Shown in pieces: positions 29,313 to 31,730 of a stretch of DNA of 64,000 nucleotides. Below the pieces are notes generated by a model. It saw only the letters and a program-made list of their open reading frames with translations. It was not told the origin of the DNA and did no database searches. Origin of the DNA: Candidatus Heimdallarchaeota archaeon (lineage in GTDB: Archaea > Asgardarchaeota > Heimdallarchaeia > JABLTI01). The translations under genes were made by a program, and so were the position numbers. The stretch lies in the NCBI GenBank assembly GCA_018238155.1, contig JABCTZ010000007.1, positions 32,001 to 96,000 of the forward strand, read 5' to 3'. The stretch's first letter is position 1. Each line of letters begins with the position of its first letter.

Positions 29313-30263
29313 CTATGGATCAGCTACTTCCATAATTGTTTGTATTTCTGTTGAAGTAGTCTCTGAGGAAATAAATGAATATTTCTGAGGTTTTGTCTTC
29401 TTTTTATCTATGGATTTTACAATCCAAGCTTTTCCTCTTATAGCTTTCTTTAACCAATCTGGAAGAATCCAACCAAGATAAGCAAGAACTACTATAACAA
29501 TATTACATAGAATTCTAATCAAGTTCATGCCAACAACGAGAACACCATTACTTGTTATTACTTCTTGTGTAAATGTAACCGTTACTGCTCGTTCAAGTAG
29601 GATAAAAATGACTGCAACCAAAATAAGAGTGACTCCAGTTCTTGCCACTTTCTCCTTTAAATTTTTGCGAATAATTATTAACCTGTAAAAAACTCTTGCA
29701 AAGATGAACAAAATAATTGGAATGAAAAATAGTGCTGTAACCACATTGGGTATAAACTGATATGTATTAGTTCCTGAATAAATAACATATTGAATCATTC
29801 CATCTTGATTGAGTCCCCATCCTTGGGATCCATCGGCAATGAATTCACTTACTAATTCTGAAAACATTAATCCTGCTAAAATTCCCAAAAGTAGTGTCAA
29901 TAATATTGATATTGATGATTTTACGATATCATTATCTCGCAATATGTGACGGTTTGCAAAGAAATAGAAGAAAATGAAGCTAGTAAGATTTAGTGCAATA
30001 GAACCTATCTGGAAAAACCCATGAACTAGAACCGAATTATTTCCAAATATCATAGATGCATTTATCCAAGAACCCGCATTGGTCAATATATTTGCAAGAA
30101 TAAACATTCCAAAAAATAATAGTAATAGACCTGTTCCAACAGTTCTTTTTTTGATATAGTTTCTAATAAGAACACCAAAAAAGACGATGAAAAAAGTAGT
30201 TGCAAGAACACCTGAAATTAAGTAAAACCAGCCTGCATTTGTTAAACCTTCAAAAGCAACCAT
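29313..30263 (-). CDS. Seven-transmembrane protein with a C-terminal amphipathic helix
   Basis: 7 hydrophobic segments ending LAYLGWILPDWLKKAI; ATG 30263 lies directly after the GTPase stop. Confidence 0.75.
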   Translation of the reverse strand: MVAFEGLTNAGWFYLISGVLATTFFIVFFGVLIRNYIKKRTVGTGLLLLFFGMFILANILTNAGSWINASMIFGNNSVLVHGFFQIGSIALNLTSFIFFYFFANRHILRDNDIVKSSISILLTLLLGILAGLMFSELVSEFIADGSQGWGLNQDGMIQYVIYSGTNTYQFIPNVVTALFFIPIILFIFARVFYRLIIIRKNLKEKVARTGVTLILVAVIFILLERAVTVTFTQEVITSNGVLVVGMNLIRILCNIVIVVLAYLGWILPDWLKKAIRGKAWIVKSIDKKKTKPQKYSFISSETTSTEIQTIMEVADP

Positions 30264-30264
30264 A

Positions 30265-30801
30265 TTATCGTTCCTCCATTTTATCTCTAAACCAACTGAA
30301 CGACTCGATAATTCCATCTCCAGTTTTAGCAGATGTTTCAAAGACCGCCCATTCAATTTCATGTTCTGTTTCCATTAAACCAAAATTCTTTACCAACTCA
30401 ACTTGACTAATTCGATCTGGTAAATCTTTTTTGTTTAACAAAAGTAGAACAGGGATTTTTCCACCAATTTGTTTATCTAAAATGTTATAAAAAATAGCTT
30501 TTGTTTCATCAAAACGTAAATGGTCAATGCTATCAATAACATAAATCAGAGCATCTGTTTTCTCATTTATTTCTTGCCATATTGGGCGAAAATCCTCTTG
30601 TCCCCCCATATCGAAGATATTTATTTGAAGCCGAGGGAAATTAATGACTTCTCGATTGACCCCCATCGTTGGTGTTGTTTCCTTGAATTCTCCATGAACC
30701 AAGTAATTTATTATTGCCGTTTTCCCAGCTTTGTCAAGACCACAGATGGTAACTGTCACAGGTTTAGTTTTTTTTCTAAATAAATTAAGTAAAAAAGACA
30801 T
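30265..30801 (-). CDS. Arf/Arl-family small GTPase
   Basis: N-terminal amphipathic MSFLLNLFRK; G1 GLDKAGKT, G2 PTMG, G3 DMGGQ, G4 NKKD, G5 TSAK. Confidence 0.93.
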   Translation of the reverse strand: MSFLLNLFRKKTKPVTVTICGLDKAGKTAIINYLVHGEFKETTPTMGVNREVINFPRLQINIFDMGGQEDFRPIWQEINEKTDALIYVIDSIDHLRFDETKAIFYNILDKQIGGKIPVLLLLNKKDLPDRISQVELVKNFGLMETEHEIEWAVFETSAKTGDGIIESFSWFRDKMEER

Positions 30802-30817
30802 TTAACTTACCTCAGCT

Positions 30818-31318
30818 TTATTTCCAGAGATCGTTTTGCATAGACTCAGTAAATGCTTGACCAGGATCCTTTTCATCTTTTGCTTCGCTTGTGAAATCAA
30901 AATCCAATGTTACTATTGAGCTAATTTTTATTTTGACCTTTTTTTTACTTAACCCTTCATATAAATGTGGCAATATTTTTGTTATCATTTCAATATTGTC
31001 AATTTGATTCTTTTTTAACTCAGTAATTGTAAATAAGAAAAATTTTCGGATGTCTTCTCGTTTGTAATCTGGTCCATCAAATATTGCTATTAGGGAAGCA
31101 ATATTTCTTCTATCTGTTCCTGGCAAACTAAATATATAGCTTTCAAAAATACATCTGTCTGCTGTACTTGATGAAAAATCTCCTTCTTTTGAGCTCATAG
31201 GCATACTTTTCAATACTATTTGATTTAAAGTGCTTTCTGGAACACCTTTTGGGTGAACCTTAACTAATTCCAAGCCATTTTTTCCCATTTGTACTAAACA
31301 CAAACTAATTGGTTTCAT
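30818..31318 (-). CDS. Hypothetical protein with a possible uDENN/longin-like fold
   Basis: Pattern of beta-beta(HP)-helix(KSMP)-beta-beta-beta-helix judged by eye. Confidence 0.45.
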   Translation of the reverse strand: MKPISLCLVQMGKNGLELVKVHPKGVPESTLNQIVLKSMPMSSKEGDFSSSTADRCIFESYIFSLPGTDRRNIASLIAIFDGPDYKREDIRKFFLFTITELKKNQIDNIEMITKILPHLYEGLSKKKVKIKISSIVTLDFDFTSEAKDEKDPGQAFTESMQNDLWK

Positions 31319-31730
31319 TCGTTTTTCCTCGAGAATTCATAGGTGCATAATAGAATGTTTTTGTCGCTAAAAACAATCACTTCATTTATGTTTTTCTCAT
31401 ATATATACATAGCAGTTTCTGCAAAATTTTATCTTCACTGTATTTAATTAAAAGCATTCATTTTTATGTCGAAAAAGAACAATATTGGCTAAATAACAAT
31501 TCAATTTATTGTTGGAACGAAACACAGATTAATTATTTTTCTAAGAAACAGTATTCAAAGTCTTTCGTTATTTTTCAGTGAAATGTAAATAAAGTCCGAT
31601 AACCTTCATTTGAAAGATAGCTAACAGCTAGTTTTTTTATGTAATCTCTCTGAGAGAAGATATTTTTTTAAATGGCTTCATTAGGATTCATTAACATAAC
31701 AATAGTCAAAAATAAGAATATAACAATCAA

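Follow-up and report, generated by a model that had tools for sequence, protein, structure and literature searches.

A Conserved Longin-Arf-7TM Operon of Heimdallarchaeia: a Candidate Membrane-Proximal Small-GTPase Switch Module

INTRODUCTION

Which regulator and which membrane protein work with an Arf-family GTPase in an Asgard archaeon? The question is raised by a 64,000-nucleotide stretch of the genome of a Candidatus Heimdallarchaeota archaeon (assembly GCA_018238155.1, contig JABCTZ010000007.1, positions 32,001 to 96,000 of the forward strand; here called the window), in which three closely packed minus-strand genes between positions 31318 and 29313 encode a longin-domain protein (P0003), an Arf-family GTPase (P0002) and a seven-transmembrane (7TM) protein (P0001). 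An initial annotation, made from the sequence alone, had proposed that they form a signaling unit resembling that of G protein-coupled receptors (GPCRs).

Asgard Arf-related GTPases (ArfRs or AArfs) are membrane-binding switches (PMC11914678; 10.1101/2024.02.28.582541), and the regulators of Asgard Arf GTPases have been stated to be unknown (PMC11914678). NPRL2-like and FLCN/SMCR8-like longins have been noted in Asgard archaea, with ArfR or Rag as their clients posed as a question (PMC12290439), and Liu et al. (2020/2021) described NPRL2-like longins and a different operon (LAMTOR1-like, Rab-like, DENN). Asgard GTPases (MK-D1) were reported to lie generally outside operons with longin or roadblock genes, their partners being unpredictable from the layout (PMC10933270). 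A 2026 preprint mentions "7TM proteins" and "a class C GPCR" among Asgard-eukaryote structural clusters, in detail insufficient to match the P0001 family. We found no description of a longin-Arf-7TM operon in the literature, the supplementary tables of the Asgard eukaryotic signature protein catalogues lying outside the search. Here we describe this operon, its distribution and its predicted protein folds, and we weigh what the three proteins may do together.

RESULTS

The three genes form an operon whose parts diverged together

The three open reading frames (ORFs), in the order of transcription, are as follows.

31318..30818, minus strand: gene 1, P0003, ORF of 166 amino acids (aa), NPRL2-like longin-domain protein
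30801..30265, minus strand: gene 2, P0002, ORF of 178 aa, Arf-family small GTPase of the Asgard ArfR type
30263..29313, minus strand: gene 3, P0001, ORF from the ATG at 30263, 316 aa, 7TM protein

All three are codirectional, with gaps of 16 nucleotides (nt) between longin and Arf and 1 nt between Arf and 7TM, and these coordinates agree with the tight minus-strand spacing read in the initial annotation. The longest ORF of the 7TM gene would begin at 30362 and overlap the Arf gene by 98 nt.

By word-indexed search the 7TM protein has 14 relatives and the longin 57. Among 1.84 billion representatives, an exhaustive profile search recovered only 88 clusters belonging to the 7TM family, all of 380 aa or less. 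All the named clusters are Asgard, the homologues carrying Heimdallarchaeota or Asgard names. Every one of the 19 nonredundant full loci with enough flank has the order longin>Arf>7TM, and the neighbors of the trio are unrelated between loci. Even the most divergent trio recovered, L049 (7TM E value 1.8e-15), has the same three genes in the same order. At that locus (L049:1814-5143) the 7TM protein is 380 aa long with an extra C-terminal tail of ~100 aa, and the trio follows a gene for a 359-aa protein that belongs to no known family.

The genome of the window (4.08 Mb) carries six complete trios, on contigs C39, C29, C10, C41, C15 and C20, together with one longin>7TM pair without Arf on C21; its other Arf-family genes and ArfRs are orphans. 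In a sample of 301 Asgard genomes, with E<1e-30 taken as a strong match, strong 7TM and strong longin matches fell in the same 15 genomes, from two families of one class, and each gene had one further genome, with the match at a contig end. The longin adjoins the 7TM gene in 34 of the 35 strong 7TM places. By the distance between the two genes, 26 of these places are trio-like (550 to 610 nt) and 8 Arf-less (41 to 158 nt); the presence of the Arf was confirmed in the fetched loci and the remaining trios and pairs were classed by spacing. Other Asgard families in the survey have distant relatives only. The initial annotation had made its proposal depend on co-occurrence of the genes elsewhere, and the trio does recur in other Asgard genomes.

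Across 17 trios, the longins share on average 49% pairwise identity, the Arfs 56% and the 7TM proteins 28%; the distance matrices of the three proteins correlate at r values of 0.85 to 0.91. Maximum-likelihood trees of the three genes share 10 of 14 bipartitions, against a mean of 0.2 to 0.3 and a maximum of 3 with shuffled labels. The shared bipartitions and correlated distances indicate that the operon has been duplicated and inherited whole, its parts unswapped. Conservation and codivergence rule out a chance adjacency of three genes, and the arrangement is confirmed as far beyond chance.

Some copies appear damaged. In L027 the Arf is spread over two ORFs, and in L029 the Arf ORF is missing the part with the P-loop; two TAA codons interrupt the 7TM reading frame in L030, and a TGA interrupts that of the longin in G232:C49. 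Such copies may represent pseudogenes, or else errors in the assembly of metagenome-assembled genomes.

The GTPase is a member of the Arf family

P0002 matches the Pfam Arf family (PF00025) with 147.2 bits (cutoff, 22.3; E = 4.5e-43) over residues 6 to 174 of 178, and its sequence assigns it unambiguously to the Arf-family GTPases. Its best sequence matches in the PDB are all Arf, Arl or ArfR proteins (Arf1, Arf6, Arl3 and GerdArfR1), with the top Arf at 1.1e-33 and the Asgard GerdArfR1 (8OUN) third at 3.1e-29 over residues 1 to 172. The motifs G1 (GLDKAGKT, 21 to 28), the switch-I threonine (T45), G3 (DMGGQ, 64 to 68), G4 (NKKD, 123 to 126) and G5 (SAK, 157 to 159) are all present, as had been read before; G1 to G5 are kept in the 17 operon Arfs, in which the catalytic Q68 is invariant.

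The N terminus reads MSFLLNLF, and M1, F3, L7 and F8 are invariant in the 17 operon copies. The initial annotation had described an amphipathic helix without Gly2 at this end. Gly2 is indeed lacking, whereas the hydrophobic moment of residues 2 to 12 is not above that of shuffled sequences, so the helix assignment leans on the conserved F3/L7/F8 and on the alignment to GerdArfR1 from residue 1.

At the position three residues before the switch-I threonine, where G-alpha has its arginine, P0002 has T42, and there is no arginine finger in cis. With a catalytic glutamine and no cis arginine, P0002 would be expected to need a GTPase-activating protein (GAP) in trans, like other Arfs. It scores 40.6 bits on Pfam G-alpha, under the cutoff of 48.8, and 1.5e-9 on Pfam SRPRB, and it has neither a helical insertion domain nor an N-terminal transmembrane (TM) anchor.

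The longin protein is closest in structure to NPRL2

P0003 belongs to no Pfam or NCBIfam family by sequence, and a search of all PDB chains with a profile of its family yielded nothing above chance level (E of 0.34 and weaker), which leaves no alignment to NPRL2 at the level of residues. Its AlphaFold2 (AF2) model (pLDDT 86.5) has the topology bb-a-bbb-aa plus bb plus a helix, with strands at 5 to 12, 15 to 22, 48 to 53, 56 to 65 and 72 to 80 and helices at 28 to 38, 87 to 103 and 109 to 125, which is the longin fold (beta2-alpha-beta3-alpha2). The fold of 30818 to 31318 had earlier been assigned by eye, and AF2 and Foldseek bear out a longin domain.

In VIA structural comparison, residues 1 to 143 of the model align with residues 5 to 160 of NPRL2 (Z 16.3, root mean square deviation [rmsd] 2.7, 142 aligned), and NPRL2/Npr2 entries span Z values of 13.8 to 16.3 with rmsd 2.7 to 3.0 over 139 to 143 residues. 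FLCN reaches 10.9, SMCR8/C9orf72 entries 8.9 to 9.4, DENND1 9.0, and adaptor and SNARE longins 8 to 10 (sigma/mu ~9). Foldseek also matched NPRL2 (4.3e-7), and the Atlas matches include NPRL2, Npr2p and NPRL3 at TM scores of 0.68 to 0.70. Judged by its model, P0003 is a longin closest, by a clear margin over generic longins, to NPRL2/Npr2, the catalytic subunit of GATOR1/SEACIT. Of the earlier label "uDENN/longin-like," the longin part stands, and uDENN proves imprecise given the DENND1 score. The Atlas matches also include a longin-Arf fusion from Asgard archaea, and such fusion proteins have been reported (PMC11914678).

Two residues in the beta4-beta5 loop stand out: R70, conserved in at least 90% of members, the most divergent included, and N72, which is invariant; R70 is present in every trio, every duo and L049. 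The aligned ranges are compatible with R70 corresponding to NPRL2 R78, at the level of the range rather than of the residue. G12, G15 and, after beta2, P23 are invariant as well, G15 being followed by L16. A D-x-L-W sequence (163 to 165) is conserved at the C terminus, with W165 invariant in the family. Longer, fused relatives of P0003 were absent among 8000 candidates, which given the search tool is weak evidence. GAP activity of a longin domain on an Arf is established for C9orf72:SMCR8, in which SMCR8 R147 acts on Arf1 (PMC8213707).

The 7TM protein has a conserved cytoplasmic face and a variable outer face

The AF2 model of P0001 (pLDDT 74.8, pTM 0.73) is a seven-helix bundle with helices at 9 to 39, 42 to 70, 74 to 108, 112 to 139, 174 to 201, 205 to 230 and 240 to 289, a beta-hairpin in the second outer loop (ECL2) and a long amphipathic helix following TM7. 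The seven hydrophobic helices and the helix-8-like segment of the initial annotation are both found in this model. Lysine and arginine are enriched in the loops 36 to 43, 102 to 113, 199 to 210 and 265 to 285, which by the positive-inside rule places the N terminus outside and the C terminus inside. P0001 stands alone, with no kinase, cyclase or other enzymatic output domain, as had been noticed earlier.

Position 250 in TM7 is arginine or lysine in all trios and duos and tryptophan in the distant relatives. Being mostly arginine, it is not a retinal Schiff-base lysine; TM7 of P0001 itself has no lysine, in line with the previous reading. This basic residue and Q85 (TM3) lie in the outer half of the bundle and are candidate pocket residues.

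Conservation was measured over 52 aligned sequences of the 7TM family. It stands at 0.64 in the cytoplasmic loops and post-TM7 helix, against 0.35 in the outer loops, and within the transmembrane helices it is higher in the cytoplasmic half than in the outer one (Mann-Whitney P = 5e-11 for inside versus outside). Fixed motifs are KKRTxGT in the first intracellular loop (ICL1, after TM1), FxNRHILxDND in ICL2 (cytoplasmic end of TM3), R190, and GWILPDWLKxRIRGKAW at the end of TM7 and in helix 8. A conserved inside combined with a variable outside is, as read from the alignment, the pattern expected of a repertoire of receptors that share one kind of intracellular partner and differ in their cue.

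The fold is of the receptor type and no more specific to GPCRs than to rhodopsins

The earlier description of P0001 as GPCR-like concerned both its topology and its kinship. None of the 14 7TM members matched a GPCR family of Pfam (7tm_1/2/3, Frizzled, cAMP receptor and others) at an E value of 1 or below; sub-threshold matches alone, such as DUF998 and Ycf66_N, were returned for them, and P0001 had no match in NCBIfam. The top Foldseek matches of P0001 in the PDB are all GPCRs but are weak (E of 7.6e-4 and weaker, TM score 0.37 to 0.51, rmsd 6 to 9), and since the PDB is dominated by GPCRs, such hit lists are biased toward them. Exhaustive VIA comparison gave Z values of 12.9 to 15.0 for GPCRs (best MRGPRD, 9dqj: Z 15.0, rmsd 4.1, 230 aligned) and 13.1 to 13.3 for microbial rhodopsins (KR2, 3x3b: Z 13.3, rmsd 4.6, 238 aligned), both within the range of a measure in which Z values of ~13 to 14 are common for helical bundles.

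The nearest predicted structures, from ESM-Atlas, have TM scores by query of 0.59 to 0.65 over 237 to 260 aligned residues (rmsd 3.5 to 4.2). They comprise unnamed Asgard proteins and N-terminal 7TM sensor modules from bacteria and archaea whose fused outputs are of the histidine kinase (HK), GGDEF, HD or MEDS kind, and among the matches listed, 7 of the 10 carry HisKA_7TM or signaling output domains. Language-model look-alikes of P0001 from the HisKA_7TM family reached at most 0.87, under the lead threshold of 0.9, and the HisKA_7TM profile (PF16927) matched none of the 14 members at an E value of 1 or below.

On the evidence of the models, the fold of P0001 is a receptor-type 7TM bundle that is no more specific to GPCRs than to microbial rhodopsins, and GPCR homology of P0001 is not demonstrated. 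Its N-out/C-in topology, ECL2 beta-hairpin and post-TM7 amphipathic helix sustain the topological half of the GPCR-like description, while Pfam, VIA and ESM-Atlas give no backing to a GPCR-specific fold or family. The initial annotation would have dropped its proposal had a GPCR-like fold been lacking; the P0001 model is compatible with a GPCR-type bundle.

Signals and genes around the trio

The following signals, read from the nucleotide sequence, accompany the three genes.

31330-31327, minus strand: GAGG, Shine-Dalgarno-like, 8 nt before the longin ATG
30813-30809, minus strand: GAGGT, Shine-Dalgarno-like, 7 nt before the Arf ATG, within the 16-nt gap
30277-30273, minus strand: GGAGG, Shine-Dalgarno-like, 9 nt before the 7TM ATG, within the 3' end of the Arf gene
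29292-29276, minus strand: terminator-like hairpin with T-run, 20 nt past the 7TM stop

The placement of GGAGG within the end of the Arf gene would fit translational coupling of the 7TM gene. The hairpin at 29292-29276 is likely the 3' end of a three-gene transcript; within the unit, no terminator-like hairpin with a T-run lies between the three genes on the same strand. A further hairpin with a T-run is found at 31802-31816 (minus strand), in the 610-nt spacer (31319-31928) that precedes the longin start. This is the probable 3' end of the upstream transcript, in which case the trio would have its own promoter. The upstream minus-strand neighbor is an AAA_17/AAA_18 kinase-like gene (32725..32159), and an L37e gene lies on the opposite strand (31929-32084).

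The genes flanking the trio are ordinary archaeal housekeeping genes (beta-CASP/KH nuclease, PUA protein, Sm-like protein, L37e). The window has a G+C content of ~33%, and Rfam and tRNA scans over its whole length gave no match. A 323-aa Arf-family GTPase unrelated to the trio is encoded at 55744-56712 on the plus strand (Pfam Arf, 1.4e-17); its last ~130 aa form a C-terminal extension without any family match.

DISCUSSION

A membrane-proximal switch module

We favor, with slightly better than even confidence, the reading that the trio is a membrane-proximal small-GTPase switch module of Heimdall-type Asgard archaea, encoded in one operon and made up of a 7TM sensor, an Arf switch and a longin regulator. 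From gene order, conservation, codivergence, the folds and the location of the conserved residues, we infer physical binding, sensing, the direction of regulation (GAP or GEF, a guanine nucleotide exchange factor) and output. In such a module, the variable outer and transmembrane part of the 7TM protein would sense a cue, and its conserved cytoplasmic face (ICL1, ICL2 and helix 8) would dock the soluble partners. There the Arf, whose N-terminal helix would sit in the same leaflet of the membrane, would alternate between its GDP and GTP states. That cycle would be controlled by the NPRL2-like longin, probably in dimeric form and most likely as a GAP supplying R70, by analogy with NPRL2 R78, FLCN and SMCR8 R147. 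Through duplication of whole operons, a single genome would then have as many as seven such channels in parallel, insulated from one another and each equipped with a receptor, switch and regulator of its own. The module would be functionally analogous to GPCR and conservon systems. Of the receptor-GTPase-GEF/GAP unit proposed initially, this keeps a conserved, coevolving trio with an Arf switch, a longin of a regulatory kind and a stand-alone 7TM protein; the GPCR specificity falls away, and the 7TM interface is weakly supported.

Several observations weigh against this module. The sensing role of P0001 would follow solely from its variability pattern and its structural neighbors. When the complex was predicted from three chains and the 7TM protein was scored as the partner, the result was 0.33 (runs 0.33, 0.36 and 0.30), a value in the band graded as more often wrong than right unless the interaction is likely beforehand, with no interface reported. 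In the calibration of this score, 58 of 80 solved complexes and 2 of 110 mismatched pairs came up to the mark, but only 7 of the 80 solved complexes, and both passing mismatches, did so at 0.60 or under; our run departs from that calibration in its custom alignments and three chains. The best control scored 0.02, the score also drops to 0.02 when the Arf alone is replaced, and the runs share at least 75% of contacts with a partner pLDDT of at least 74. A 7TM-Arf contact has, from these models, weak support.

Moreover, 8 of the 34 adjacent places are longin>7TM pairs without an Arf (gaps of 41 to 158 nt).

C21:5493-6928 of the window's genome (locus L013): Arf-less pair
L031, L032 and L050: Arf-less pairs
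G289:C14, G123:C10, G123:C16 and G268:C443: Arf-less pairs by spacing only

These pairs keep R70 of the longin and the ICL2 motif of the 7TM protein, so the conserved cytoplasmic face may in part be there for the longin rather than the Arf. The RGKxW end of helix 8 is kept in the trios and is lost or degenerate in two of three Arf-less pairs. As far as sequence can tell, ICL2 may serve the longin and the helix-8 extension the Arf. From these pairs, and from the distant 7TM relatives that adjoin another longin in other Asgard families (described below), the oldest link appears to be longin-7TM rather than receptor-GTPase, the Arf having apparently been gained in the clade of the window or kept by that clade alone.

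The direction of regulation is likewise exposed to objection. A GP motif before beta2 has been linked to longin GAP activity (PMC12290439), and the P0003 family does not have it literally, reading G15-L16 at this place. P0003 is also a single 166-aa domain, with one longin gene per operon, no second longin subunit and no C-terminal DENN/NPRL2 domain. Finally, most longin and roadblock platforms are GEFs rather than GAPs (PMC10933270, PMC12290439).

Alternative explanations

These last three points are the ones that would make the longin a GEF for the Arf, like the platforms of the Mon1-Ccz1, TRAPP, DENN and Ragulator types, with the conserved arginine serving a structural or interface role and the pocket of eukaryotic GAPs missing for want of a partner longin. 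We regard such a role as somewhat less likely than not. The structures closest to P0003 belong to the catalytic GAP subunit NPRL2/Npr2, well ahead of DENND1 and of the sigma and mu adaptor longins, and the beta4-beta5 loop arginine persists in the most divergent members. Besides, Arfs need an arginine finger in trans, and the operon holds no other GAP candidate.

The 7TM protein might instead be a membrane anchor, a cargo or a transporter ("transceptor"), to which longin and Arf are recruited for membrane remodeling or trafficking (vesicles, protrusions, internal membranes). In eukaryotes, lysosomal PQLC2 recruits C9orf72-SMCR8-WDR41, and GPR155/LYCHOS and SLC38A9 act with GATOR1/Rag, which offers analogies for docking of this kind. 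Asgard ArfRs do bind membranes via their N-terminal helix and act as switches (10.1101/2024.02.28.582541; PMC11914678), and the operon encodes no effector or output domain.

Docking would also fit the longin>7TM pairs without Arf, which have distant counterparts across other Asgard families. The distant 7TM relatives there (~250 aa) share only TM5 to TM7 and a YLG(W/Y)xMPxW(F/L)(K/R)(K/R) end, and in 8 of 13 loci they adjoin a different longin gene, of the sybindin/Fuz type. At L037, L038, L041 to L044, L047 and C1:35807-37880 of the window's genome (L017), the distant 7TM genes sometimes form tandem pairs, and the longin-like neighbor has ~150 aa; in L041 this neighbor matches Pfam Fuz_longin_1 at 2.5e-7. 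The locus L046:2835-4399, in an Asgard genome of high GC content, has a Ras-family GTPase (Pfam Ras, 4.9e-31) immediately upstream of a distant 7TM member. An hhalign comparison of the P0003 family with the sybindin-like longins beside the distant 7TM genes found no match except the C-terminal D-x-L-W, an end common to P0003 (163 to 165) and the product of L037:4785-5225 (minus strand), which are otherwise unalignable longins. This shared end may be a docking motif, and the gene pairs suggest a wider Asgard pairing of longins with 7TM proteins.

The anchor or transporter role is nevertheless somewhat improbable in our estimation. Up to seven divergent paralogues per genome, with a fast outer face and a fixed cytoplasmic face, better fit a repertoire of receptors, no transporter family matches beyond the sub-threshold DUF998, and the nearest folds are those of sensor modules.

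A bolder alternative is that the 7TM protein is itself a ligand-activated GEF acting directly on the Arf, with the longin as a GAP in the role of a regulator of G protein signaling, which would make the trio a relative or precursor of GPCR/G-alpha signaling. The N-out/C-in topology, the ECL2 hairpin and the helix after TM7 agree with it, as do the GPCRs among the top Foldseek and VIA matches, the Arf dependence of the weak complex signal (0.33 versus 0.02), the RGKxW end kept in trios and degenerate in two of three duos, and the sub-cutoff score of the Arf on G-alpha. Derivation of G-alpha from Arf-like GTPases is an established opinion of comparative genomics. We nonetheless consider direct exchange by the 7TM protein decidedly unlikely: no GPCR family is recognized by sequence in the 14 members, the KR2 rhodopsin scores nearly as high, the PDB is biased to GPCRs while closer structural neighbors are prokaryotic sensor 7TMs, G-beta and G-gamma are lacking, the GTPase has no helical insertion domain, and the family amounts to 88 clusters, the named ones all Asgard. 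It is a correspondingly speculative and improbable thought that these 7TM proteins are ligand-gated exchange factors for their cognate Arfs, with the longin as a built-in GAP, standing at the stem of GPCR/G-alpha signaling or of lysosomal GATOR/folliculin nutrient sensing, or representing an independent invention.

The SRX domain of SR-alpha has a longin-like fold. A targeting unit resembling the receptor of the signal recognition particle (SRP), with the longin as SRX, the Arf as SR-beta and the 7TM protein associated with the translocon, would agree with the nesting of SR-beta within the Arf family (10.1101/2024.02.28.582541) and the SRPRB match of P0002, yet it is very improbable, because the Arf match is far stronger (4.5e-43 versus 1.5e-9), the GTPase lacks the N-terminal TM anchor, SR-alpha is absent from the 50 best structural matches of the longin (which are to NPRL2, FLCN, adaptor and SNARE longins), and six to seven paralogues per genome in a narrow taxonomic range are unlike housekeeping translocation.

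Comparison with known systems

Returning to the switch module, its parts can be set beside several known systems. With the eukaryotic longin GAPs (NPRL2/Npr2 of GATOR1/SEACIT, FLCN and SMCR8), P0003 has in common the longin fold, a conserved loop arginine and pairing with a small GTPase, and the substrate of SMCR8 is an Arf (PMC8213707), as is the GTPase paired with P0003. It differs from them in its length of 166 aa, the lack of a C-terminal NPRL2/DENN domain, G-L in place of GP, its encoding beside a GTPase and a 7TM protein, and the absence of a sequence-level match. P0002 falls into the same Arf group as the Asgard ArfR/AArf proteins HodArfR1, GerdArfR1 (8OUN) and Heim12F4_9-5, with which it shares the N-terminal F/L/F motif and the catalytic glutamine; published work on these concerns the GTPases alone, whereas each operon Arf has dedicated longin and 7TM neighbors.

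In its logic, the closest prokaryotic analogue would be the conservon "G protein system," together with MglA/MglB. Actinobacterial conservons (CvnA-D) and MglA/MglB are operons of a membrane sensor, a roadblock regulator (likely a GAP) and a small Ras-superfamily GTPase, often in many paralogous copies (PMC13621833, PMC13343842). Conservons differ in having an HK-like sensor, an MglB-type roadblock protein, a DUF742 GEF and a non-Arf GTPase, while the trio combines a bare 7TM protein, a longin and an Arf with no fourth gene. No HK or DUF742 domain was found in the trio proteins with Pfam and NCBIfam, so the likeness is one of logic only. The prokaryotic 7TM sensor modules (HisKA_7TM, PF16927) share the 7TM architecture and are the nearest predicted structures to P0001; they differ in their fused outputs, for which a noncovalent output through longin and Arf would stand in the trio.

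Eukaryotic GPCR/heterotrimeric G protein systems have in common with the trio the seven helices, the N-out/C-in orientation, the ECL2 hairpin, the post-TM7 amphipathic helix and a separate GAP candidate, and the conserved motif at the cytoplasmic end of TM3 of P0001 occupies a position analogous to DRY. The trio differs from them in a GTPase without the G-alpha helical domain, in the lack of a beta-propeller (G-beta) gene in the operon and of GPCR-family membership by sequence. The lysosomal recruiters PQLC2, GPR155/LYCHOS and SLC38A9 combine a multipass protein, a longin GAP and an Arf or Rag GTPase in a nutrient-sensing logic. The archaeon has no lysosome, its parts are single-domain and co-encoded, and the likeness carries no shown homology.

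Significance

By synteny, the operon answers which longin and which membrane partner pair with an Asgard Arf: in Heimdallarchaeia, an NPRL2-like longin is tied to an Arf and a receptor-like membrane protein. It also gives dozens of natural, coevolving cognate triplets of longin, Arf and 7TM protein that can be directly expressed and assayed. If the biochemistry holds, membrane-coupled small-GTPase signaling with a dedicated GAP and a repertoire of receptors would predate eukaryotes, and the trio would provide a concrete model for the assembly of circuits of the GATOR/folliculin type or of the GPCR type.

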